In this document: in pieces, positions 41,978-55,341 of the stretch
Layout of the letters: every line of letters begins with the position of its first letter
Position numbering within the stretch: the first letter of the stretch is position 1
DNA from: an uncultured Mycobacterium sp.
GTDB lineage: Bacteria > Actinomycetota > Actinomycetes > Mycobacteriales > Mycobacteriaceae
DNA: 64,000 bases
Direction of reading: 5' to 3'
Assembly: GCA_964513475.1 (NCBI GenBank)
Contig: CAZEMS010000006.1
Location: 34,031-98,030 of the forward strand
Translations under genes and position numbers: made by a program
The notes under the pieces: generated by a model
The model's input: only the letters and a program-made list of their open reading frames with translations
Told to the model about the DNA's origin: nothing
Database searches by the model: none

Positions 41978-42113
41978 CCTCGCACCGAAGGCGTCCCTGA
42001 TACGAGGGCGTTACTGTCTGTTGCACGCCGGTTAAATCCGGTTCTTCGGCTGGCGATCGGGCTATCCGGCTCTGATCATTGCGGTGAGAGTTCCTTCGAG
42101 AGGTGCCACCGCA

Positions 42114-42635
42114 ATGTTGATGCATCAGGGCATAGGCTTGGACGCCTTCAACGGCATGCCGATGCGCAAGGCCGTCCACGCGGTCTTCGAGTGTTGCTCC
42201 AGCGTCCCGCTGGCGGCCGACCTGGCCCGCGGCCGGCCCTACGCCTGCCACGAAGCTTTGCTGCGGCGCGCTGACGACCTGCTCTTCGACCTGTCCGAGG
42301 CGTCGATGGACGAGATCCTGCAGGCCTATCCCTGCGTCGGGCAACGCCCGCGCAGCACTCGGTCGGCCGCCGAAGTCTGCGCGGTCTGGGACGACCGCGC
42401 AGAGATGATGGACCAACTCAAGGCCGCGACCGACCACTATGCCGACCAGTTCGGCTTCCCGTTCGTCATGTACGTCGACGGCCTCGATGCCGACGGAGTC
42501 CTGGCCGCGGTCGGCGATCGGATGCACAACGTGGCAGAAACCGAGCGCAAGGTCGTCCGCAACGAACTGGCCAAGATCAATCGGAGTCGGCTGCAGCGCA
42601 TGCTGGGCCCGGAGGGCGGCTACCAGAACTGGTGA
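42114..42635 (+). CDS. OHCU decarboxylase (UraD)-family protein, divergent
   Basis: LDAFN, RPY, SAAE, YADQFGFPFV, ELAKINRSRL; usual HP motif reads YP. Confidence 0.75.
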   Translation: MLMHQGIGLDAFNGMPMRKAVHAVFECCSSVPLAADLARGRPYACHEALLRRADDLLFDLSEASMDEILQAYPCVGQRPRSTRSAAEVCAVWDDRAEMMDQLKAATDHYADQFGFPFVMYVDGLDADGVLAAVGDRMHNVAETERKVVRNELAKINRSRLQRMLGPEGGYQNW

Positions 42636-42659
42636 GAGCGCTCGCCTAAGCTCGGTGCG

Positions 42660-43700
42660 GTGAACCCGTCGGGGTCTGCGGCGCGCCCTCGTTTCCTGTC
42701 GCTGCCGGATCTGGCTGCGCGGTCGGTGGGCGGCGCCGTGTTGTGGGCGAACGATGACCTCTTCGCCGCGAAGGAGAACCTCATCGCGGCCGGGCCGGCC
42801 CGGCACAGTTCGGCCACTTTCGGCCACAAGGGTCAGGTCTACGACGGGTGGGAGACCCGGCGGACCCGCGGCGTCGGACCGGAATCCCACGACTCGGCCA
42901 TCGTCCGGCTCGGTGTGCCCGCGATCGTGCGCGGACTGGTGGTGGACACCTCGTGGTTCACCGGAAACCACCCGGCGCAGATCTCGGTTCAAGCCGCTTT
43001 CGCGCCGGGTCATCCGTCGGCACAGCAGCTGGTCGGCGAGACGCATTGGACCACCCTGGTGCCGCGCAGCAAGGTCGGCGGCGACTGCCTGAACCCGTTC
43101 GAGGTTGCTTCGGACCGAGCCTGGACCCATCTGCGACTGTGCATCTACCCCGACGGCGGTGTGGCACGACTTCGGGTGCACGGCGAGGGGCTGCTGGACC
43201 CGGGGTTCGCCGACCTGCCCCTGGACCTGGCGGCCCTGCAGAGCGGCGCCCGTGTTCTCGCCTGCTCGGACATGTTCTACGGCTCGCCGAACAATCTGCT
43301 GCTGCCCGGCGTGGCCCGCACGATCGGCGAGGGGTGGGAGACCGCACGGCGCCGCGACAGCGGCAACGACTGGGTACACCTGCAGCTGGCGGGCTCCGGC
43401 CTGGTGACCACCGCAGAACTGGATACGTCCTGCTTCATCGGCAATGCCCCCGGCGCCGCACGGTTGAGTGGGCGTGACGGCAGTGATCCCCGCGGCGAGT
43501 GGTTCGAGTTGCTGGCACTCACCGAGTTGCAGCCCGACACCCGTCACCGCTTCCGCCTCGGCGATCCGCGCTCGGTCACCGAGGCCAGGCTCGACATCTA
43601 TCCGGACGGCGGCATGGCACGGCTGCGGTTGTACGGCACGCTGACCGCCGCAGGACAGCGCCGGGCCCGCGAGAAATGGGATACCGGCGGTCGCAGTTGA
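42660..43700 (+). CDS. alc: Allantoicase
   Basis: Two repeats: DDLFAAKENLI/DGWETRR/DGGVARLRVHG and DMFYGSPNNLL/EGWETARR/DGGMARLRLYG. Confidence 0.92.
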   Translation: MNPSGSAARPRFLSLPDLAARSVGGAVLWANDDLFAAKENLIAAGPARHSSATFGHKGQVYDGWETRRTRGVGPESHDSAIVRLGVPAIVRGLVVDTSWFTGNHPAQISVQAAFAPGHPSAQQLVGETHWTTLVPRSKVGGDCLNPFEVASDRAWTHLRLCIYPDGGVARLRVHGEGLLDPGFADLPLDLAALQSGARVLACSDMFYGSPNNLLLPGVARTIGEGWETARRRDSGNDWVHLQLAGSGLVTTAELDTSCFIGNAPGAARLSGRDGSDPRGEWFELLALTELQPDTRHRFRLGDPRSVTEARLDIYPDGGMARLRLYGTLTAAGQRRAREKWDTGGRS

Positions 43701-43829
43701 CCCGATCCGGCGCTCGCGCGCATCGACATTGAGGATTGGCAGGGCGTCACTCGAACTTTGGCTGCCAATGTTCAATCTCGGCAGCGGGGCACATCAGCGG
43801 CGGGACTGACGCTGAGTAGGTTTGGTGCC

Positions 43830-46800
43830 GTGTCAGCGGCATACCCCGGGATTCCCGCGCAGTACGCGCTGTCGTCGTTGGCTGCCGAACCACGCACCTT
43901 GATCGACATCCTCAACGACACCGCCGCCCGCTACCCGGACGCGGCGGCGATCGACGACGGCAGCGTCCAGCTCAGCTACGACGAACTGGTCTCCGACATC
44001 GAAGAGAGCGTTCAATGGCTGGCCGCCCGTGGCATCGGCCGCGGCGACCGGGTCGGCATCCGCATGCCATCGGGCAGCTACGCGCTCTACGTCGCGATCC
44101 TGGCCGTCCTGGCCGCCGGGGCGGCTTACGTGCCGGTGGACGCCGACGATCCCGGGGAGCGCGCCGAACTGGTCTTCACCGAGGCCGACGTCGTCGCCGT
44201 GATCACCGAAGCCGGCCTGGTCCGCTGGCCCGGTTCGTCTCGCGGCTGGCGGGCGGGGGCTCCGCTGGGCCGCGACGACGCCTGGATCATCTTCACCTCG
44301 GGCTCCACCGGTACCCCCAAGGGCGTGGCGGTGACGCACCGCAGCGCCGCCGCCTTCGTCGATGCAGAAGCGCAGATGTTCGTCCAGCACAGCCCGCTCG
44401 GCCCCGGCGACCGGGTGCTGGCCGGGCTCTCGGTGGGCTTCGACGCATCGTGTGAGGAGATGTGGTTGGCCTGGAGGCACGGCGCATGCCTGGTCCCGGC
44501 GCCACGGTCACTGGTACGCAGCGGCATGGACCTGGGTCCGTGGCTGGTTTCGCGGGAGATCACCGTGGTGTCCACGGTGCCGGCACTGGCCGCGCTCTGG
44601 CCCGCCGAAGCACTGGAATCGGTGCGCCTGTTGATCTTCGGAGGCGAGGCGTGCCCGCCCGAACTGGCCCGGCGCCTCACCGCGGGTCCCGATTCGGCGG
44701 GCCGTGAGGTGTGGAACACCTACGGCCCCACCGAGGCCACCGTCGTCGCCTGCGCGGCCCGGTTGGACGGCGCAGTGGAGCAGCAGGGCGACGAGTTGGG
44801 CTCCGACCTGAGTGCGGTCAGCATCGGATTGCCGCTGCCCGGCTGGGATCTGGCGGTCGTGGACGGCCAGGGCATACCCGTCGGCACCGGTGAGGTCGGC
44901 GAACTGGTGATTGGTGGGGTAGGCCTGGCGCGCTACCTCGATCCGGCCAAGGACGCAGAGAAGTACGCGCCGATGGACACTCTGGGCTGGGCGCGTGCCT
45001 ACCGCACCGGTGACCTGGTGCGGCTGGAGGCCGAGGGTTTGTACTTCTGCGGCCGGGCCGACGACCAGGTCAAGGTTGGCGGGCGGCGGATCGAACTCGG
45101 CGAGGTCGATGCGGCGCTGACCCAGCTGCCGGGCGTCAGCGCCGGCGCCACCGCAGTCCGGCACAACTCCAGCGGGACACCCCTGCTGGTCGGCTACATC
45201 GTGGCTCAGACCGCAGGACCCGAGCAGGAGTTCGACGTGTCCGCAGCTCGGGCGATGTTGGCAGATACCTTGCCTGCCGCCATGGTGCCGCGACTGGTAC
45301 TGCTCGACGAACTGCCCACCCGGACCTCGGGCAAGGTCGACCGGGATGCGTTGCCCTGGCCGGTGGACGGTGCCGACGATGCGGCCAGCGGACCGTCACT
45401 CGGCGGCACCGCCGGATGGCTGGCCGAGTTGTGGCGCGACGTCCTCGCAGCGCCCGTCGACGGTCCAGAAGCCGACTTCTTCGCCCTTGGCGGCGGCTCG
45501 TTGTCGGCGGCGCAGCTGGTGGCCGCGTTGCGGCCACGCTACCCGCAGGTGACTGTCGCCGACCTGTATGACCATCCCCGGCTCGGATCGCTGGTGGCCT
45601 ACCTCGACGAACTCGAGCCGCCGCCCAGGGTCGAAACGCGCGAGGTGACCCCGACGTCGTGGCTGACCCAGGCGGCGCAGGTCGCGTTGTCGGTACCGCT
45701 GGCCACGCTGACCGGACTGCAATGGGTGATCTGGCTGGCGGCGGTCAACAACCTCGCCGCTGCCTGGAACCTGGTGCCCTGGACCAGGGCGGTGAGCTGG
45801 TGGTGGATCGTCGCCGGATTCGTTCTGTTCGTCGCGCCGGTGGGCCGGATGGGAATCGCTGCGCTGGGGGCGCGGATGCTGCTCGGCGGCCTGCAGCCCG
45901 GAACCTACCGCCGCGGAGGTGCGGTGCACCTTCGGGTGTGGCTCGCCGAGCGGCTTGCCGCGGCCAGCGGTGCGGAGAATCTGGCAGGCGCGCCATGGTT
46001 GGTTTACTACGCACGGGCGCTGGGCAACTCGATCGGCAAAGGGGTTGACCTGCATTCGGCTCCGCCGGTGACCGGGATGTTGACACTCGGGCACCGTTGC
46101 TCAGTCGAACCCGAGGTCGACCTGTCCGGATATTGGATCGACGGGGACCTGTTCCACGTCGGGCCGATCACCGTGGGCAATGACGCCACCATCGGCGCCC
46201 GCACCACTCTGCTTCCCGGCGCGGTCGTCGGCAAGAACGCTGATGTGGCACCGGGTTCCGGGGTGACCGGCAAGGTGAAGAACCGCCAGTACTGGAAGGG
46301 CTCACCCGCGGTGAAGTCCGGTAAGGCGCGACACCCGTGGCCCGACCACCGACCACCGCGCGCACCGCAGTGGGTCGCCGCGTTCGGGGTGACGTCGCTG
46401 CTGTTGGGCGCGCTGCCGCTGGCCGCGCTGGCATGCGGTCTGGCGGTGATCGGCTGGGCCGTGCGCGACACCGAGTCGCTGTCACAGGCAATCGGGCCGG
46501 CCGTGCTGTGGACTCCGGTGGCGGCTCTGGTCGCCCTCGCGGTGTACGCGGCACTGACGGTGATCGGGGTACGCGCACTGTCGGTTCGGCTCTACGAGGG
46601 CTACCACCCGGTGCGCAGTCGCACCGGATGGCAGCTGTGGGCCACCGAGCGGTTGATGGACGCGGCGCGCAACTACCTGTTCCCGCTCTATGCCAGCCTG
46701 CTCACACCGTGGTGGCTGAGACTGCTGGGGGCGAAGGTAGGTCGCGGCACCGAGATCTCAACGGCGCTACTGACTCCGAAGTTCACCGTGATCGAGGACG

Positions 46801-47807
46801 GGGCTTTCCTGGCCGACGACACCATGGTGGCCTCTTACGAACTCGGCGGCGGCTGGATTCATGCGGCTCGGGCGACCGTCGGCAAGCGGGCGTTCCTGGG
46901 CAACTCCGGCATCACCCAGCCCGGTCGCAGGGTTCCCGACGACGGGCTGGTGGCGGTCCTGTCCGCCGCTCCGCGCAAGGCGAAGGTCGGATCGTCCTGG
47001 CTGGGCAGCCCGCCGGTCCGGTTGCGGCGCAAGCCAACCGCGGCCGACGCACTGCGTACCTTCCACCCGACGGCCCGGCTGAAGACCATGCGCGGGGCTG
47101 TCGAGACCTGTCGGCTGGTACCGGTGATCCTGACATTCGGGATCGGCGTGGCGGTGCTGGCGGCCCTGCAGGCACTAATCGTCCACTCCGGCTATCTGTG
47201 GGCGGCGCTGGCCGGCGGGCTGGTGCTGCTCGGCGCCGGAGCGGTGGCCGGCGGGCTGGCGGTGATCGCGAAATGGGTTGTGGTCGGCCGGATCAAGGCC
47301 ATCGAACATCCGTTGTGGTCGTCGTTCGTCTGGCGCAACGAGGTGTCCGACACCTTCGTCGAGTCCGTTGCCGCGCCGTGGTTCGCCCGCGCCGCCAGCG
47401 GCACCCCGGTGATGAACCTGTGGCTACGCGCTCTGGGTGCGCGAATCGGGCGCGGCGTCTGGTGCGAAACCTACTGGCTACCCGAAGCGGACCTGGTCAC
47501 TCTGGAGCGCGGCAGCACAGTGAATCGGGGCTGTGTGGTTCAGACCCATCTGTTCCACGACCGCATCATGCGAATGGACACCGTGGTGCTCGAGGACGGG
47601 GCCACGCTGGGCCCGCACTGCGTCGCGCTGCCCGCCGCCCGCATCGGCGCCGGCGCCACGATCGGGCCGGCGTCGCTGGTGATGCGCGGCGACGAGGTGC
47701 CACCGTCGACCCGCTGGCAGGGCAATCCGATCGCGCCCTGGAACACGTTGCGGAAGAAGCGCGGTGGGCGCAAGGCCGGCAGAACGCCCAAGGGTTCGGC
47801 GGCGTGA
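43830..47807 (+). CDS. Pls/PosA-family membrane NRPS-like synthetase (A-T-TM with three hexapeptide-repeat domains)
   Basis: FTSGSTGTPKG, FDASCEEMW, NTYGPTE, YRTGD, SGKVDR; T domain FFALGGGSL; TM pairs; three repeats RALGNSIG/RLLGAKVG/RALGARIG; TAGGTT -10 seven nt before the GTG. Confidence 0.9.
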   Translation: MSAAYPGIPAQYALSSLAAEPRTLIDILNDTAARYPDAAAIDDGSVQLSYDELVSDIEESVQWLAARGIGRGDRVGIRMPSGSYALYVAILAVLAAGAAYVPVDADDPGERAELVFTEADVVAVITEAGLVRWPGSSRGWRAGAPLGRDDAWIIFTSGSTGTPKGVAVTHRSAAAFVDAEAQMFVQHSPLGPGDRVLAGLSVGFDASCEEMWLAWRHGACLVPAPRSLVRSGMDLGPWLVSREITVVSTVPALAALWPAEALESVRLLIFGGEACPPELARRLTAGPDSAGREVWNTYGPTEATVVACAARLDGAVEQQGDELGSDLSAVSIGLPLPGWDLAVVDGQGIPVGTGEVGELVIGGVGLARYLDPAKDAEKYAPMDTLGWARAYRTGDLVRLEAEGLYFCGRADDQVKVGGRRIELGEVDAALTQLPGVSAGATAVRHNSSGTPLLVGYIVAQTAGPEQEFDVSAARAMLADTLPAAMVPRLVLLDELPTRTSGKVDRDALPWPVDGADDAASGPSLGGTAGWLAELWRDVLAAPVDGPEADFFALGGGSLSAAQLVAALRPRYPQVTVADLYDHPRLGSLVAYLDELEPPPRVETREVTPTSWLTQAAQVALSVPLATLTGLQWVIWLAAVNNLAAAWNLVPWTRAVSWWWIVAGFVLFVAPVGRMGIAALGARMLLGGLQPGTYRRGGAVHLRVWLAERLAAASGAENLAGAPWLVYYARALGNSIGKGVDLHSAPPVTGMLTLGHRCSVEPEVDLSGYWIDGDLFHVGPITVGNDATIGARTTLLPGAVVGKNADVAPGSGVTGKVKNRQYWKGSPAVKSGKARHPWPDHRPPRAPQWVAAFGVTSLLLGALPLAALACGLAVIGWAVRDTESLSQAIGPAVLWTPVAALVALAVYAALTVIGVRALSVRLYEGYHPVRSRTGWQLWATERLMDAARNYLFPLYASLLTPWWLRLLGAKVGRGTEISTALLTPKFTVIEDGAFLADDTMVASYELGGGWIHAARATVGKRAFLGNSGITQPGRRVPDDGLVAVLSAAPRKAKVGSSWLGSPPVRLRRKPTAADALRTFHPTARLKTMRGAVETCRLVPVILTFGIGVAVLAALQALIVHSGYLWAALAGGLVLLGAGAVAGGLAVIAKWVVVGRIKAIEHPLWSSFVWRNEVSDTFVESVAAPWFARAASGTPVMNLWLRALGARIGRGVWCETYWLPEADLVTLERGSTVNRGCVVQTHLFHDRIMRMDTVVLEDGATLGPHCVALPAARIGAGATIGPASLVMRGDEVPPSTRWQGNPIAPWNTLRKKRGGRKAGRTPKGSAA

Positions 47808-49141
47808 CGCGGAAGAAATCTGGCAGCCCGGCACCGGTGATCGACCCGTACCTGCCGACGAACGGCAACTTCGGGTATCGGGTGTCCCGCTACGAACTGC
47901 AGCTGGAGTACAAGGTGGCGATCAACCGGCTCGCCGGCTCGGCATCGATCACCGCGGTGACACTGGCGGCATTGCGCACCTTCACGCTGGACCTTTCCGA
48001 CGCACTGACGGTAAGCAAGGTATCGGTGAACGGTCGGCGCCCCGCTCAGTACCGCTGTTCCGGAGGAAAGCTGCACATCGGGTTGGCCTCGGCACTGCCC
48101 GCCGGTGCGGCACTGTCGATCACGGTGCGCTACAGCGGATCTCCGCGCCCCATCTGCACACTGTGGGGCGAGGTGGGCTTCGAAGAGCTGTCCGACGGCG
48201 CGCTGGTCGCCGGCCAGCCCAACGGCGCGGCGTCCTGGTTTCCCTGTGATGACCACCCCAGATCCAAGGCGAGCTACCAGATCCAGATCAGCACCGAAAC
48301 CCCCTACCGCGCCATCGCCAACGGCGAACTGGTATCACGACGGGCCCGGGCGGGCATGACCACCTGGACCTACGAACAAGCCGAGCCGACATCGCCTTAC
48401 CTGGTGACGCTGCAGATCGGTAAGTACGACACGATGCGGTTGGCCAAGTCGCCGGTACCGATGTACGCCGCCCTGCCGCCGCGGCTAAGGCGCAACTTCG
48501 ACCACGACTTCGACCGCCAACCACAAATGATGAAACTGTTCATCAAGTTGTTCGGCCCCTACCCACTGGCCAACGGATACACGGTGGTGGTAACCGACGA
48601 CGACCTCGAGATACCTCTCGAGGCTCAAGGTGTCTCCGTCTTCGGCGCCAACCACTGCGACGGTCAGCGCCGATCAGAACGGCTGATCGCCCACGAACTC
48701 GCCCACCAGTGGTTCGGCAATTCGGTCACCGCACGCCGCTGGCGCGACATCTGGTTGCACGAAGGCTTCGCCTGTTATGCGGAGTGGCTGTGGTCCGAGC
48801 ACGTCGGTGAGGAGTCCGCCGACGAGTGGGCGCGCCATTACCACGTGCGCCTGCTGGACTCCCCGCAGGACCTGCTGTTGACCGACCCCAAGCCCCCAAA
48901 CATGTTCGACGACAGGGTGTACAAGCGCGGAGCGCTCACGTTGCACGCGTTGCGTCGTCGACTCGGCGACGACAATTTCTTCGCACTTCTCAACGACTGG
49001 ACCGCGCGCTACCGGCACGGCACGGCAGTGACCGACGACTTCACCGGCCTGGCGGCGAAGTACACCAGCGAGTCACTGCGTCCGCTGTGGAACGCGTGGC
49101 TCTACTCCACCGACACGCCTGCACTGGGTGCCGACTTGTGA
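47804..49141 (+). CDS. M1-family zinc aminopeptidase
   Basis: WFPCDDHPRSKA, HELAHQW...WLHEGFA (HExxH-18-E), YKRGA; GTGA overlap with the NRPS stop. Confidence 0.9.
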   Translation: MTRKKSGSPAPVIDPYLPTNGNFGYRVSRYELQLEYKVAINRLAGSASITAVTLAALRTFTLDLSDALTVSKVSVNGRRPAQYRCSGGKLHIGLASALPAGAALSITVRYSGSPRPICTLWGEVGFEELSDGALVAGQPNGAASWFPCDDHPRSKASYQIQISTETPYRAIANGELVSRRARAGMTTWTYEQAEPTSPYLVTLQIGKYDTMRLAKSPVPMYAALPPRLRRNFDHDFDRQPQMMKLFIKLFGPYPLANGYTVVVTDDDLEIPLEAQGVSVFGANHCDGQRRSERLIAHELAHQWFGNSVTARRWRDIWLHEGFACYAEWLWSEHVGEESADEWARHYHVRLLDSPQDLLLTDPKPPNMFDDRVYKRGALTLHALRRRLGDDNFFALLNDWTARYRHGTAVTDDFTGLAAKYTSESLRPLWNAWLYSTDTPALGADL

Positions 49142-50457
49142 CCGACGCCTCCACCGCGCCGATGGGCCCGCTGCGTGCCGGGGGAAACTCGGCGGGGCCG
49201 ATCGCGCGCGGCAGCGTCGCGCGGGTCGCGGTAGCAACCGTGCTGACCGCGCTGTGTGGCTACGTCGTCCTCTACCTCGCGGCACGTGACCTCGGCCCCG
49301 AGGGTTTCTCGGTCTTCGGCGTGTTCTGGGGCGCGTTCGGGTTGGCCAGTGGCGCTGCCTTCGGCCTGCTGCAGGAGACTACCCGTGAGGTTCGTTCCTT
49401 GCGCCACAACGCGATCCGCGCCGGACCCCGCACCCGACCGATGGCGGTCGCGGCCATGGTCGGGGTCGCCGCGGCGGCGTTGATCGTGGTCAGCGCACCG
49501 GCATGGTCATCACAGGTGTTCGTAGAGTCCAGCGCGCTCAGTGTCGCGCTACTCGCTGCTGGACTGGCCGGGTTCTGCCTGCATGCGACGCTGCTGGGGA
49601 TGCTGGCCGGTGAAAACCGCTGGACCGAGTACGGATCGCTGATGGTGACCGACGCCGGTATCCGAGTTGCGGTAGCGGTGGCGACCTTCATCCTCGGTTG
49701 GGGTCTGGTCGGATTCCTTTGGGCAACGGTGGCCGGTGCGGTGGCATGGTTGCTCATGCTGGCGGTGTCGCCGACGACGCGCACTACCGCCCACCTGCTC
49801 ACCCTTGGCGGCACAAGGACGTTTCTGCGCGGCGCGGCACACTCGATGGCGGCCGCCGGGGCCAGTGCCGTTCTAGTGATGGGATTCCCGGTGCTGTTGA
49901 AGGCTACATCGGGTGATCTGGGCGCCACCGGTGGCGTGGTGATCCTGGCCGTCACCCTGACCCGGGCGCCACTGTTGGTGCCGTTGACTGCCATGCAGGG
50001 AAATTTGATCGCCCACTTCGTCGACCAGCGGGCCAACCGGATGCGTGCACTGGCCGGCCCGGCCGCCGCGGTGACCGGCCTCGGCGCCGTCGGCGTTGCT
50101 GCGGCGGGACTGGCGGGACCGTGGCTCTTGCAGGTCGCGTTCGGCCCCCAGTATCAGGCCGGCGGGGCGTTGCTGGCATGGCTGACCGCAGCCGCGGTGG
50201 CAATCGCGCTGCTGACGCTGACCGGTGCCGCGGCGGTCGCGGCGGCACTTCACCGCGCCTACGCCGCGGGTTGGGTAGGTGCCACCGTCGCCGCGGTGCT
50301 GTTGCTGATGCTGCCGCTGAGCCTGGAGACCCGCACGGTGATCGCGCTGCTGTGCGGCCCACTGGCGGGCATCGCGGTGCACCTGGCCGCCCTGGTCCGG
50401 TCTGGGCCCCGGCCGCACTATCCTACGGAGGTTTACGACGACGGAGGAACCACATGA
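49138..50457 (+). CDS. Multi-pass membrane protein, flippase/MOP-like (Rv3630-like)
   Basis: About 12 hydrophobic segments; FGLLQETTREV and LTRAPLLVPL motifs; synteny. Confidence 0.75.
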   Translation: MTDASTAPMGPLRAGGNSAGPIARGSVARVAVATVLTALCGYVVLYLAARDLGPEGFSVFGVFWGAFGLASGAAFGLLQETTREVRSLRHNAIRAGPRTRPMAVAAMVGVAAAALIVVSAPAWSSQVFVESSALSVALLAAGLAGFCLHATLLGMLAGENRWTEYGSLMVTDAGIRVAVAVATFILGWGLVGFLWATVAGAVAWLLMLAVSPTTRTTAHLLTLGGTRTFLRGAAHSMAAAGASAVLVMGFPVLLKATSGDLGATGGVVILAVTLTRAPLLVPLTAMQGNLIAHFVDQRANRMRALAGPAAAVTGLGAVGVAAAGLAGPWLLQVAFGPQYQAGGALLAWLTAAAVAIALLTLTGAAAVAAALHRAYAAGWVGATVAAVLLLMLPLSLETRTVIALLCGPLAGIAVHLAALVRSGPRPHYPTEVYDDGGTT

Positions 50458-51431
50458 CCTGGTTGGTGACGGGCGGGGCCGGCTACATCGGCTCGCACGT
50501 GGTGCGCGCTCTGCTCGAGGCCGACATGCCGGTCGCTGTGATCGACGACCTGTCCACGGGTTTGGAGCAGTTCGTCCCGGCCGGCGTGCCGCTGGTGCGT
50601 GGCACCATACTCGACGCGGGGCTCGTCGAGCGCACCCTTCGGGAGCATGCCGTCACCGGCGTGATCCATGTGGCGGGTTTCAAGTTCGCCGGAGTCTCCG
50701 TCGAGCAGCCGTTGCACACCTATGAGCAGAACGTCTCGGCGATGGTCACCCTGCTCACGTCGATGGCCGCGGTCGGAACCGGGAAAGTGGTGTTCTCCTC
50801 CAGTGCAGCCACCTACGGCACTCCCGACACCGACTTCGTCACCGAGCAGACACCTACCAACCCCGAATCACCCTATGGGGTAAGCAAACTGATCGGAGAG
50901 TGGATTCTTCGCGACACCGGACGGGCAACCGGGCTGCGGCACACCAGCCTGCGTTACTTCAACGTGGTCGGCTCGGGTTCACCGGATCTCTTCGACACCA
51001 GCCCGCACAATCTGTTCCCGGTCGTATTCGACATGCTCTACCGCGGAGAGACACCGCGGATCAACGGTGCCGACTACCCCACCCCGGACGGCACCTGCGT
51101 TCGCGACTACATCCATGTCGCTGACCTCGCGCTGGCTCACGTCGCTGCCGCGCGCCGGCTGGATGCCGGCGATCCGGTGGAAGCCATCTACAACCTGGGC
51201 AGTGGCGGCGGTACCTCGGTTCGCGAGATCATGTCGGCGATCCGCACCGTGACCGGTGTCGACTTCGAACCGTCCATCAACGCGCGCCGTCCGGGTGACC
51301 CCGCACGCATCGTCGCATCCGGCGAACTGGCCGCACGCGATCTCGGCTGGCAGATGCGCCATTCGCTCGAGCAGATGGTGGAATCCGCCTGGGTCGCCAG
51401 ACAACGCGCCGGCGACACCTACCCACGGTAG
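50454..51431 (+). CDS. galE: UDP-glucose 4-epimerase
   Basis: WLVTGGAGYIGSH, FSSSAATYG, YGVSK, LRYFNV, DGTCVRDYIHV, RRPGDP. Confidence 0.9.
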   Translation: MTWLVTGGAGYIGSHVVRALLEADMPVAVIDDLSTGLEQFVPAGVPLVRGTILDAGLVERTLREHAVTGVIHVAGFKFAGVSVEQPLHTYEQNVSAMVTLLTSMAAVGTGKVVFSSSAATYGTPDTDFVTEQTPTNPESPYGVSKLIGEWILRDTGRATGLRHTSLRYFNVVGSGSPDLFDTSPHNLFPVVFDMLYRGETPRINGADYPTPDGTCVRDYIHVADLALAHVAAARRLDAGDPVEAIYNLGSGGGTSVREIMSAIRTVTGVDFEPSINARRPGDPARIVASGELAARDLGWQMRHSLEQMVESAWVARQRAGDTYPR

Positions 51432-51439
51432 ACGCCGTC

Positions 51440-53206
51440 GTGAACCGGGTCGCCCGCGCCGCCGCCGCGCTGATCGCGGTTCAGCTGGCCGTCCGGGCGG
51501 CGCTCGCCTTCGGCGGTTACTTCTATTGGGACGATCTGATTCTTGTGGGCCGAGCCGGAACTCAGGGACTGCTGTCCCCGGGGTATCTGTTCGACGACCA
51601 TGACGGCCACGTCATGCCGGCGGCCTTCCTGGTGGCGGGCGGCATCACCCGAGTGGCACCGCTGGACTGGATCGGACCGGCGATCAGCCTGGTGCTGCTA
51701 CAGCTACTTGCGTCGCTGGCGCTGCTACGAGCGCTGCACGTGATCCTGGGCTGGCGGCCGGTGTTGTTGGTGCCGTTGACTTTCGCGTTGTTCACGCCGT
51801 TGGCAGTGCCGGGCTTCGCGTGGTGGTCCGCGGCGCTGAACTCGCTGCCGATGCTGGCGGCGCTGTCGTGGGTTTGCGCCGACGTGATCCTGTTGGTCCG
51901 CACCGGAAACCGGCGCTACGCCGTCACCGCGGTGCTGGTGTACTTCGGTGGGCTGCTGTTCTTCGAGAAGGCCGCCGTCATCCCGTTTGTCGCCTTCGCT
52001 GTCGCCGCGCTACTCCTGCACGTCGGTGGCGATCACCGGGCGCTGAGGACGGTGTGGCGCCGTGCAATCCGGGTATGGTTTCCCGCCCTGGCGTTGACCG
52101 GGCTCTGGATCGGGGTGTACCTGTTCGTCGTCGACCAGCAGCGCTGGAGCTTCGACCTCGCGATGACGTGGGACCTATTGCGCCGCTCCGTCACCCATGG
52201 CATCGTGCCGGGGCTGGCCGGTGGCCCTTGGGACTGGCAGCGGTGGGCTCCCGCCTCACCGTGGGCGACGCCGCCGGTGGCGGTGATGGTGCTTGGCTGG
52301 CTGCTGCTGTCCGCCGCGGCGACGGTATCCCTGTTGCGCAAGAAACGGATCGGCGCGGTCTGGCTGGTCGCGGTGGGTTATGTCGTCGCATGCCAGGTCC
52401 CGATCTACTTGATGCGGTCGTCGCGATTCACCGCGCTGGAACTGGCCCAGACATTGCGCTACTTCCCTGACCTGGTAGTCGTGCTTGCACTGCTTGCCGC
52501 GGTTGCGTTGGCGGCCCCCAACCGGGAACGGTCCGGCCGCCTGGGACCATCACCGGTGCGCACGGTGACGGTGATAGTCATCGGAGCCGCATTCCTCGTG
52601 AGCAGCCTGTACTCGACGGCGACCTTCCTGAGATCCTGGCGCGACAGCCCGGTACGGCCGTATCTGCACAACGCTCAATCCTCTTTGGCGCACGCATACG
52701 CCACGTCGCCCGCGCCGGTTCTGGATCAGGAGGTGGACCCGCTGGTGCTGCAACGGGTGGCGTGGCCGGAGAACCTGGCCAGCCACATGTTCGCGCTGGT
52801 GCGTGAGAGGCCGGAGTTCGCCCATCACACCACTGAGCTCCGGATGTTCGACACCAGCGGACATCTCGTCGATGCCGAGGTCACCTGGGTGCGTGCCATC
52901 CTCGCGGGTCCGCAACCGCGCTGTGGGTACTTCGTCCGGCCCGACCACGAGGTGGAGATGCCGATGGACGGACCCCTGCTACCCGCGGACTGGGTCGCCG
53001 AAATCAACTATCTGGCCAATGTCGACGGCTCGCTGACCTTCTCCTTGCCCGAGGGCCGCGAAACCAGGGTGCCGGTGCGGCCCGGACTGAACCGGGTGTT
53101 CGTCCGCCTTCCCGGTGCCGGCGACGCTATCCGGGTGCAAGCCAACACCGCCGCACTCGCCGTGTGCATCTCGCCGGGCCCGGTCGGCTTTCTGGCGCCA
53201 CGCTGA
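51440..53206 (+). CDS. Conserved multi-pass membrane protein (Rv3635-like), possible GT-C glycosyltransferase
   Basis: YFYWDD after TM1, many TM helices, C-terminal extracytoplasmic domain; synteny. Confidence 0.7.
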   Translation: MNRVARAAAALIAVQLAVRAALAFGGYFYWDDLILVGRAGTQGLLSPGYLFDDHDGHVMPAAFLVAGGITRVAPLDWIGPAISLVLLQLLASLALLRALHVILGWRPVLLVPLTFALFTPLAVPGFAWWSAALNSLPMLAALSWVCADVILLVRTGNRRYAVTAVLVYFGGLLFFEKAAVIPFVAFAVAALLLHVGGDHRALRTVWRRAIRVWFPALALTGLWIGVYLFVVDQQRWSFDLAMTWDLLRRSVTHGIVPGLAGGPWDWQRWAPASPWATPPVAVMVLGWLLLSAAATVSLLRKKRIGAVWLVAVGYVVACQVPIYLMRSSRFTALELAQTLRYFPDLVVVLALLAAVALAAPNRERSGRLGPSPVRTVTVIVIGAAFLVSSLYSTATFLRSWRDSPVRPYLHNAQSSLAHAYATSPAPVLDQEVDPLVLQRVAWPENLASHMFALVRERPEFAHHTTELRMFDTSGHLVDAEVTWVRAILAGPQPRCGYFVRPDHEVEMPMDGPLLPADWVAEINYLANVDGSLTFSLPEGRETRVPVRPGLNRVFVRLPGAGDAIRVQANTAALAVCISPGPVGFLAPR

Positions 53207-53433: not shown

Positions 53434-55341
53434 ATGGCGTTGCGGATCTCCGCGAAACAGCTGCTTGCGGTTTCTCTTGGTGTCATCGCGATGGTCTTCG
53501 CCGTCGCAGTGTCGGCTTCGCTCATCAGCCAGGCGTCGGTCGAGCGCATCGCCGCCGACTTCGAGAACCGTCTCCTTCCGTTCCAGGAGAAGAGCGCGGA
53601 GTTGGCCCGCGCATACCTCAATCAAGAGACCGGCCAACGCGGGTTTCTGCTGACCGACAATCCAGTAACCCTGGAGCCTTACAACTCAGCAACCGTTGAG
53701 GCCGAGCGCCTGATCCCCGAGCTTCGTGCCGAACTTGCCCGGGAACCAGACGGCGGCGAACTCCTCCAGCTGTTCGAAGAGGTCGTCACCGCGGCCACCG
53801 TCTGGCGCGAGCAGGCCGCCGAGCCGCAGATCGCCGCTCAGCGCGCTGAGTCGATTCCCAAGGAACAGCTCAGGCAGATGGTCCTCGACGCCAAAGAACT
53901 GTTCGACCGGCTACGCGAACGAGCGCGGGTGCTCAACGCGCGTCTAGACAGCTTGATCGCCGAAAGGCTTCAGCAGCTCCGTTCGGTACAGCGCACGGCC
54001 AGCATCGTTCAGTACAGCGCGGCAACCGCCCTGGTAGCCGTCATCGTTGGCGTGTTCCTCTTGACGACTCGCATGGTCAATCGGCCGGTTACCCGGCTCG
54101 TCGGCGACGTACGCGATGTGGCCGCCGGGGTGTACGACAAGCCCATCGGCACAACAGGTCCCAGCGAGATTCGAGAGATTTCTACTGCCGTGCGGGACAT
54201 GCGTGACACGTTGATCGAAGCGCGTCACGAACTCCAGACCGAGAAAGACCGGTTCGAGTCCGTAGTGGGCAAGACGCCATCGGCTATCTCGGTACGTGAT
54301 CCCCAACACCGCTACACCATGGTCAACGCAGCGTTCTGCCAGTTGTTCGGGTATCCGTCGGTCGAGGATGTGATCGGTCGAACCGAGGATGAGATCCTGC
54401 CGAGCGATGTCCTTGAACGCTCCCAGCGTGCCGCGCCTGAGCTCCTGGCCGGGGGCACTTCCTTCGATGAGGAGTCGATCCGGTGTGGTCCGGAAAACAT
54501 CTTGACCGTGACCCACCGATTTCCGTTGCTCAATGGCGCTGGCACAGTCACAGAGCTGGTGACGGTACGAACAGACATCACTCACCGCAAGCAAGTCGAG
54601 CTGGAGGCCGCCGAACGGGCCAAGTGGCAAGAACTGGTCGCCTCCGCCATCAGCACCGGCAGGCTCTTGGTCTACTCGCAGCCCATCGTCGACATCGCCA
54701 GCAGGCAAACGGTTGCCGAGGAGTTGCTGGTGCGGCTGCGCGCCCCCGAGACAGGGGAGGTTCTGCCTCCGGGCACGTTTCTGCCCCAGTGCGAGCAGCA
54801 CGGGCTGATGCCTTTGATCGACAAGTACATGGTCGGACGCGCGATCGAATTGGCGCGTGGTGGCCGGCAGGTTTCGGTGAACATCACCGGTCAAACGATC
54901 GCCGATGGCCCAACGATGGAGCAGATTCTGGAAGCCCTCTCCGACGCAGGGCCAGACGTAGCAGACAAGATCATCTTCGAGATCACCGAGACGACTGCCC
55001 TGGCTTCGCCTGCTATGGCCAAGAGATTTTCGGTGAGTATGCGAGATCGGGGCTGCCGAGTTGCCCTCGACGATTTCGGCACCGGCTACGGGACGTTCAC
55101 CGAACTGCGACATCTTGATCTCTACGCATTGAAAATCGACTTCAGCTTCGTCCGCAGCATGCTCGAGGATCGCGACGACGAACGCGCCGTGAGCACGATC
55201 GTCTTCGTGGCCAAGACTTACGGACTGACTGCGATCGCCGAAGGTGTTGAGTCGCAGGAGGTGCTGGAAAGGCTTGCCGAGCTAGGAGCGGATCGCGCGC
55301 AGGGATATCTCTTCGGCAGACCGGCGCCGATCGATGCGTAG
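53434..55341 (+). CDS. CHASE3-HAMP-PAS-EAL membrane sensor, probable c-di-GMP phosphodiesterase
   Basis: QETGQRGFLLT...EPY (CHASE3), TM2, HAMP, PAS/PAC (VNAAFCQLFGY...DITHRK), EAL residues ELLVR, SVNI, EITE, DDFGTGY, KID, EGVE, QGY. Confidence 0.88.
   Translation: MALRISAKQLLAVSLGVIAMVFAVAVSASLISQASVERIAADFENRLLPFQEKSAELARAYLNQETGQRGFLLTDNPVTLEPYNSATVEAERLIPELRAELAREPDGGELLQLFEEVVTAATVWREQAAEPQIAAQRAESIPKEQLRQMVLDAKELFDRLRERARVLNARLDSLIAERLQQLRSVQRTASIVQYSAATALVAVIVGVFLLTTRMVNRPVTRLVGDVRDVAAGVYDKPIGTTGPSEIREISTAVRDMRDTLIEARHELQTEKDRFESVVGKTPSAISVRDPQHRYTMVNAAFCQLFGYPSVEDVIGRTEDEILPSDVLERSQRAAPELLAGGTSFDEESIRCGPENILTVTHRFPLLNGAGTVTELVTVRTDITHRKQVELEAAERAKWQELVASAISTGRLLVYSQPIVDIASRQTVAEELLVRLRAPETGEVLPPGTFLPQCEQHGLMPLIDKYMVGRAIELARGGRQVSVNITGQTIADGPTMEQILEALSDAGPDVADKIIFEITETTALASPAMAKRFSVSMRDRGCRVALDDFGTGYGTFTELRHLDLYALKIDFSFVRSMLEDRDDERAVSTIVFVAKTYGLTAIAEGVESQEVLERLAELGADRAQGYLFGRPAPIDA

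Follow-up and report, generated by a model that had tools for sequence, protein, structure and literature searches.

A polylysine synthetase–peptidase gene pair directly ahead of three envelope-glycan genes in a mycobacterial operon: probably two modules of old synteny

The 64,000 nucleotides from an uncultured Mycobacterium sp. that were analysed here (contig CAZEMS010000006.1, positions 34,031 to 98,030; this whole stretch is called the window) contain at positions 43830–53206 five co-directional open reading frames (ORFs) that raise a question of function. The genes follow each other in the order pls, which encodes a synthetase of the polylysine type, M1, which encodes a metallopeptidase, a flippase-like gene, galE, and a gene for a protein that resembles GT-C glycosyltransferases. 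Do the enzymes of a poly-amino acid and those of an envelope glycan contribute to one product, or do they merely share an operon? The answer that we regard as fairly probable is that two conserved modules are neighbours through old synteny and share a transcript. Co-expression of the modules is likely, their chemistries appear to be independent, and a chemical coupling is not supported. The tight spacing claimed by a first-pass annotation was found in the sequence at all four junctions, each on the plus strand. The stop codon of pls overlaps the start codon of M1 by 4 bp in a GTGA (47804–47807), a second GTGA (49138–49141) joins the stop of M1 to the next start, an ATGA overlap (50454–50457) links the flippase gene and galE, and an 8-bp gap separates the TAG of galE (51429–51431) from the GTG of the last gene (51440).

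The gene pls (43830..47807, plus strand) encodes a membrane nonribosomal peptide synthetase (NRPS) of the Pls/PosA type, in which an adenylation–thiolation (A-T) didomain is followed by a C-terminal part with six transmembrane (TM) segments and three tandem acyltransferase-like domains. The protein scores 750 bits against TIGR02353, whose cut-off is 423.1, and the match extends over model positions 2–695 of 695. Pfam assigns AMP-binding to residues 30–368, PP-binding to residues 530–592, and Hexapep and Hexapep_2; the same scan yielded neither a condensation nor a thioesterase domain. Furthermore, residues 11–514 align with the A-domain of Pls from Streptomyces albulus (PDB 7WEW) with an E-value of 5e-184. 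The model match, the domain content and the similarity to 7WEW establish the protein as a Pls-type NRPS.

The adenylation code is of the lysine type, as had been claimed: all ten substrate-pocket residues are the same in the window Pls and in 7WEW, and the code DAESIGTVVK is invariant in 78 of 78 aligned sequences, the window Pls included. The enzyme thus shares with S. albulus Pls and with Pls from Corynebacterium variabile the A-T plus six-TM/three-domain architecture and an identical lysine pocket code. The homologue from C. variabile gave rise to epsilon-poly-L-lysine of 26–35 residues when expressed in Streptomyces coelicolor from the pls promoter of S. albulus (PMC8117764), and its gene adjoins a peptidase gene that is drawn as a pldII homologue (PMC8117764). 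On this basis, the window Pls is predicted to be an epsilon-poly-L-lysine synthetase. That it makes another cationic homopolymer instead (of ornithine, diaminobutyrate, diaminopropionate or beta-lysine) is very improbable. The Pls/PosA family also holds synthetases for other diamino acids, as stated in the name of TIGR02353 and in PMC8117764, and a native product has so far been detected from no Mycobacteriales strain; in line with the first-pass annotation, the literature searched describes no mycobacterial product of this type. However, besides the identical pocket, the Corynebacterium orthologues of the enzyme are 55–56% identical to the window Pls. The C. variabile enzyme forms epsilon-poly-L-lysine, and the other synthetases are just 31–33% identical to it, reside in a different gene context and have no peptidase (PMC8117764).

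The second gene (47804..49141, plus strand) codes for a pldII-like, short two-domain M1 zinc metallopeptidase of 445 amino acids, which contains the Pfam domains Peptidase_M1 and Peptidase_M1_N and an HEXXH-type motif (HELAH...E). The nearest solved structure is that of a zinc metalloprotease of 474 amino acids, 6A8Z. PldII is an endo-type metallopeptidase that degrades epsilon-poly-L-lysine (PMC9223678, PMC8506220). In S. albulus, pldII adjoins pls with a 4-bp overlap, both genes forming one operon (PMC4361855), and the same arrangement of a zinc metallopeptidase gene directly downstream of the synthetase gene is seen in the window. The M1 protein is therefore predicted to cleave epsilon-poly-L-lysine.

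The claim that the peptidase belongs with the synthetase is borne out by this shared overlap and by a near-perfect co-occurrence of the two genes. We fetched 80 named pls loci and searched them for M1 by means of tblastn. In 77 of the 80, M1 lies directly behind pls or at most about 2 kb away; of the other three, two are from Gordonia and contain no M1, and one is on a contig too short to judge. Loci with pls followed by M1 span Mycolicibacterium to Rhodococcus, Nocardia, Kribbella, Amycolatopsis and Arthrobacter. For presence and absence, three sets were surveyed: 301 genomes of the GTDB family (34 genera), 141 genomes of the window's genus (103 of them good), and 61 Corynebacterium genomes. 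Within the genus, pls is present in 96 genomes and M1 in 95; M1 was found in 95 of the 96 genomes with pls and in none of the 45 without it. The single pls genome lacking an M1 match is an assembly of 83% completeness with pls on a short contig. In Corynebacterium, all 47 genomes with M1 possess pls, and the 14 genomes without M1 all lack an orthologous pls (12 have no match, two have only a lower-scoring paralogue). The two genes are adjacent in just two of the Corynebacterium genomes, yet the co-occurrence holds. That M1 tracks pls even when the genes are far apart is strong comparative evidence of a joint function. Genes 1 and 2 are the actinobacterial pls–pldII pair, a member of a known system, as judged from domains, gene overlap and co-occurrence; like the S. 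albulus pair, they are co-inherited.

Several irregular matches were noted in these surveys. In genomes where pls–M1 stands apart from the flippase gene, the M1 match mostly contains one in-frame stop near its end, and such a stop was seen in none of the genomes with the window order; the search may have read through the end of a shorter C-terminus, so that the gene need not be broken. In six genomes (G316, G374, G343, G382, G397 and G399), the match to pls is split or interrupted by stops, which may point to a decaying pls in some species or to assemblies of poor quality. A second, lower-scoring Pls/PosA paralogue (E about 1e-153 to 1e-165) occurs in seven Corynebacterium genomes (G450, G451, G455, G461, G483, G432 and G469), two of which lack both the main pls and M1. 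This paralogue may make a different polymer.

How, then, did the pair come to stand in front of the flippase gene? The classes of adjacency were assigned by hand from match coordinates. Among the 96 pls genomes of the genus, 66 have the order pls–M1–flippase as in the window, three have the flippase gene about 12 kb upstream of pls (the order of Mycolicibacter engbaekii, L018), at least 21 have pls–M1 apart from the flippase gene (ten of them at a distance of 168–256 kb on one contig), and about six are too fragmented to classify. The window order also occurs in loci of Dietzia, Williamsia and Speluncibacter and in genomes of three further genera (g9, g11 and g27). Since the order is that of the majority in the genus and recurs in other genera, the layout is, on comparison of these sequences, old and widespread and does not go back to an insertion in this genome.

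The first-pass annotation had offered as an alternative the insertion of pls and M1 upstream of an existing operon, and a recent event of this kind ahead of a pre-existing Rv3630–galE–Rv3635 operon now appears scarcely credible. What speaks for it is that in some sampled genomes (L088, L089) the Rv3630-type gene closely follows ppa and pls is missing; the same layout belongs to Mycobacterium tuberculosis, in which Rv3630 follows Rv3628 (ppa) closely and pls is not known to occur. Against it stands, besides the distribution of the order, that protein identities drop with taxonomic distance, from about 80% in mycobacteria to 60% in Dietzia, and that pls still adjoins S13–ppa in Corynebacterium (L091, L092). 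Moreover, the GC content shows no break in composition at the borders of pls, and with this unbroken composition and the widespread order, a recent horizontal insertion of pls–M1 was rejected. The state without pls–M1, as in M. tuberculosis, looks like a loss. One of the fetched loci (L025; CAMCWJ010000011.1), although titled 'MAG: Bifidobacterium breve', displays the order S13–ppa–OHCU–pls–M1–flippase–GT2–DUF2304–epimerase–GT-C with 69–76% identity to the window; the locus is typically mycobacterial, and the bin of this metagenome-assembled genome (MAG) is probably mislabelled or contaminated.

The three genes behind the pair occupy the chromosomal position of the Rv3630–Rv3635 region of M. 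tuberculosis and of the ppgS locus of Corynebacterium glutamicum, between ppa and holB/topA. The pathway named after ppgS places galactosamine on arabinogalactan and comprises the Rv3634c epimerase, PpgS (Rv3631), Rv3632, a flippase and a deacetylase that are both unidentified, and Rv3779; it requires PpgS, Rv3632 and an epimerase of the Rv3634c type (PMC9671496). Homologues of Rv3630 and Rv3635 are present in the window.

The Rv3630-like gene (49138..50457, plus strand) encodes a polytopic membrane protein that, by the fold of its AlphaFold model, is a Wzx-type flippase of the MOP superfamily. The model was built on 105 of 1160 homologues and has a predicted local distance difference test (pLDDT) value of 92.5 and a predicted template modelling (pTM) score of 0.90. 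Its best match in the PDB is the lipid III flippase WzxE (9G9P; TM-score 0.75/0.80), followed by MATE proteins and MurJ. The protein shares with WzxE and other Wzx flippases the overall fold, and is similar in size and number of helices, whereas sequence identity amounts to just 16–18%. Neither this protein nor the GT-C-like one has a match in Pfam and NCBIfam; for Polysacc_synt (PF01943) in particular, the window flippase gave no match, and five of 105 distant homologues did (best E 1.5e-7). The label 'flippase-like' can be held firmly on the strength of the model, which assigns the Wzx/MOP fold with confidence.

The next gene, galE (50454..51431, plus strand), encodes a UDP-glucose 4-epimerase, as had been annotated: the protein scores 318 bits against TIGR01179 (cut-off 262), and it is the sole GalE of the genome above this curated cut-off, the next best protein reaching 150 bits. 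It is 31–33% identical to the Rv3634c-type epimerase that is encoded on the minus strand at this position in most relatives.

The last gene (51440..53206, plus strand) codes for an Rv3635-like membrane protein, for which the structure model suggests a GT-C-like TM domain and a C-terminal beta-sandwich. The overall pLDDT is 68.6, with the TM core at 80–96. In a Foldseek search of the PDB, the top 18 matches were all GT-C enzymes (EmbA/B, STT3, AftD, ArnT, PMT), with E-values of 9e-5 to 6e-3 and weak TM-scores of 0.31–0.39. An invariant motif, YFYWDD, lies near the N-terminus, and its D31 and D32 are the same in all of 19 orthologues. The protein appears to share with GT-C enzymes a polytopic N-terminal domain, an acidic motif near the first loop and an extracytoplasmic C-terminal domain; set against this, the TM-scores are low, the model is of medium confidence and a sequence family could not be assigned. 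A word-indexed homologue search with the protein returned only close entries named 'hypothetical protein'. As all top matches are GT-C proteins, the label 'GT-C-like' is retained tentatively.

Downstream of the flippase gene, most relatives have, in this order, a GT2 glycosyltransferase gene (PpgS/Rv3631-like), a DUF2304 gene (Rv3632-like), the divergent Rv3634c-type epimerase gene and the GT-C-like gene. In the window genome and in six fetched relatives, the GT2 and DUF2304 genes are absent from the locus, and a co-directional galE takes the place of the divergent epimerase gene. Cultured relatives that share this PpgS-less order include Mycolicibacterium pyrenivorans and M. pulveris (L006, L062). 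The window genome is 96% complete. The best match to the PpgS-type GT2 in it has 30% identity, and no orthologue was detected at E 1e-50; at this threshold, an orthologue is present in 112 of the 141 genomes of the genus and missing from 29. A search of the window genome for DUF2304/Rv3632 (PF10066) found nothing. For the Rv3634c-type epimerase, the closest protein from outside the locus in this genome has 42% identity, and the local co-directional GalE has 33%. Hence, compared with the Rv3630–Rv3635 region, the window genome differs by the lack of PpgS and Rv3632, by a different and co-directional GalE, and by pls–M1 in front; the derived state of the window consists in the missing GT2 and DUF2304 genes and the exchanged epimerase. 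Only one of the complete sampled genomes, G423, is devoid of pls as well as of the PpgS-type GT2. An in-frame TGA interrupts the flippase match of G423, where the gene is possibly a pseudogene.

These absences bear directly on the idea of the first-pass annotation that the polymer is attached to a lipid-linked galactose/N-acetylgalactosamine (GalNAc) glycan. As PpgS, the DUF2304 protein and the Rv3634c-type epimerase of the galactosamine pathway are missing, this idea is without an enzymatic basis here, and the presence patterns of the two halves of the operon, detailed below, are independent of each other; it is not supported. Another role considered for M1 was that of the GalNAc deacetylase that the galactosamine pathway lacks. 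Genomes that contain flippase, GT2 and DUF2304 genes but no pls (L084, L085, L088, L089) have no M1 either; because the presence of M1 follows that of pls, this candidate was rejected. The Rv3630-type protein, with its Wzx fold and its gene adjoining ppgS in most relatives, is a candidate for the flippase of that pathway, with the caveat that it persists where ppgS is gone.

Do the two halves nevertheless work together? The first-pass annotation had proposed the co-occurrence of pls and M1 with the Rv3630 and Rv3635 homologues as a check. The order proved to be shared by the majority of pls genomes in the genus, as described above, and the presence patterns proved to be separate. The flippase was found in 137 of the 141 genomes of the genus and in all 103 good ones, of which 76 contain pls. 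Genomes without pls keep the order ppa–flippase–GT2–DUF2304–epimerase–GT-C (L088). Across the family, the Pls model matches 274 of the 301 genomes and 31 of the 34 genera, and the flippase is present in ten genera; with this flippase query, no homologue was found in the other 24, most of which have pls. A role of the flippase as an exporter needed by Pls was rejected, given that most pls-bearing genera have no homologue to this query. In Corynebacterium, the flippase occurs in ten genomes without orthologous pls and M1 and is missing from 19 that have both. In slow-grower-like genomes (L089, L090), pls and M1 have moved jointly and the flippase gene has stayed with GT2.

Some observations weigh against a clean separation into a polylysine pair and an envelope module, or against an unaltered transfer of the published polylysine chemistry to this pair. 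M1 and the flippase gene are translationally coupled in the window, which blurs the line between the modules. Of the 28 Corynebacterium genomes that contain both M1 and the flippase gene, 25 have them next to each other, pls having moved off, and M1 adjoins the flippase gene with no pls nearby in two genomes of genus g9 as well. Of the 24 genomes with the flippase and without the PpgS-type GT2, 22 carry pls–M1–flippase, although these may represent few clades. Concerning the chemistry, epsilon-poly-L-lysine was not detected in native C. variabile (PMC8117764). For PldII, a site of action outside the membrane has been reported (PMC9223678), whereas inspection of the M1 protein by eye revealed neither a signal peptide nor a TM segment; unlike PldII, it has no obvious export signal.

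It is therefore worth considering that the halves are functionally coupled. Epsilon-poly-L-lysine, or an oligolysine that M1 cuts from it, would then be linked to an envelope glycan or presented along with it; this glycan would be handled by the flippase and the GT-C-like protein and fed by GalE, and the result would be a surface-anchored polycation. We regard this as unlikely. The neighbourhood of M1 and flippase after relocation of pls speaks in its favour, as do the overlapping stop and start codons along the operon, the conservation of the order pls–M1–flippase across several genera, and the good conservation of the flippase and the GT-C-like protein in PpgS-less genomes, nearly all of which have that order. 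Moreover, one MAG (L056) contains just pls–M1–flippase–GT-C with overlaps. However, the flippase is universal in the genus, pls- and M1-less genomes included, most pls-bearing genera have no homologue detectable with this query, and the presence of M1 follows pls and not the flippase. The operon contains neither a priming glycosyltransferase nor a ligase-type gene, and the related genomes are non-independent samples. Five genomes were checked for copy number, and each has a single M1 orthologue directly upstream of flippase–GT2–DUF2304 and pls elsewhere; in two of the five, pls has kept its place next to the carboxypeptidase gene and ppa. Depending on the lineage, breakpoints thus lie on one side of M1 or on the other, which fits a plain decay of the ancestral order and also speaks against coupling. 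A narrower version of the coupling is that, in the PpgS-less lineage, cooperation with the polylysine pair is what has preserved the flippase and the GT-C-like protein, whose genes are almost confined to the pls–M1 operon in that lineage and are accompanied by galE in the window. Both proteins would build or export a lipid-linked glycan carrying or anchoring oligo- or polylysine at the surface. This version is distinctly more doubtful still; if true, it would mean a wall-bound polycation for which no described precedent exists in Mycobacteriales.

For the preferred reading of two modules in one operon, the question of transcription remains. The first-pass annotation had claimed a leaderless promoter, and a −10-like box TAGGTT (TANNNT) at 43817..43822 on the plus strand, 7 nt before the GTG of pls at 43830, is a suitable candidate. 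A TANNNT box lies 6–7 nt ahead of the start codon in most related loci, including the copies of pls–M1 that are located elsewhere in the genome, and this conserved geometry is in line with the claim and suggests a leaderless pls transcript. A generic sigma-70 scan predicted no promoter in the region upstream of pls. In the window (43800–43832), a conserved motif of the form TTAGTAGTTTGTAnnCGTG runs into the start codon of pls. It is common to L003, L006–L008, L010, L011, L019, L062, L063, L068 and L079, where it lies just upstream of pls, and variant forms precede the relocated copies of pls in L012, L014 and L016. The motif looks like a conserved leaderless promoter and is possibly a regulatory site too. 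A search of sequencing runs for this DNA found it in two DNA runs and in no RNA run. Given the gene spacing, both modules are probably co-transcribed as one operon.

The whole window is syntenic with the mycobacterial core (tilS, Rv3627c-type carboxypeptidase gene, ppa, then holB, adenylate cyclase gene and topA). Genes of purine catabolism for an OHCU decarboxylase and an allantoicase (42084–43700) are located on the same strand and end 129 bp upstream of pls. A scan detected no terminator-like site in this gap, and read-through from the upstream genes is therefore possible; overall, such sites were no commoner in the scan than in shuffled sequences. The OHCU/allantoicase block sits between ppa and pls; in most relatives a minus-strand gene, either of the TerC family or a small ORF, intervenes before pls, which is not the case here. 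Right behind the operon (53434–55341) follows a gene for a CHASE3-HAMP-PAS-EAL sensor, whose GC content is about 0.62–0.63 compared to 0.67–0.72 in the operon.

The following mechanism is proposed. Pls would activate L-lysine at the membrane, load it onto the carrier domain, polymerise it via the epsilon-amino group and extrude the chain. The translationally coupled M1 zinc peptidase would cut the polymer for self-protection or control of its length. The second module, consisting of flippase, GalE and GT-C-like protein, would be a remnant of the mycobacterial Rv3630–Rv3635 envelope-glycan region. In this lineage, both the PpgS GT2 and the DUF2304 protein that partners it would have been lost from the region, and the co-directional GalE would have replaced the divergent epimerase. 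The most likely role of GalE is a general supply of UDP-galactose to the wall, and the flippase and the GT-C-like protein may act on some polyprenyl-linked sugar. A leaderless transcript starting from the TANNNT box would cover the polylysine pair and, via the overlapping codons, the three envelope genes.

The pair of pls and a peptidase gene is already known from outside the mycobacteria, with the 4-bp overlap in S. albulus (PMC4361855) and next to a synthetase shown to make epsilon-poly-L-lysine in C. variabile (PMC8117764). Differing from the pair of S. albulus, the one described here belongs to a mycobacterial host with no reported product and runs without a gap into three envelope-glycan genes. 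What is new is that M1 and pls are inherited together even when far apart, that the Rv3630-type protein can be assigned a Wzx fold with confidence, and that this lineage lacks the PpgS module. For a gene of 'secondary metabolism', the nearly universal synthetase gene is unusually conserved in the family, yet no native product or role in Mycobacteriales is known. If the two-module reading is true, the locus would be an ordinary mycobacterial copy of the polylysine pair, and its link to the envelope glycan would be one of gene order.

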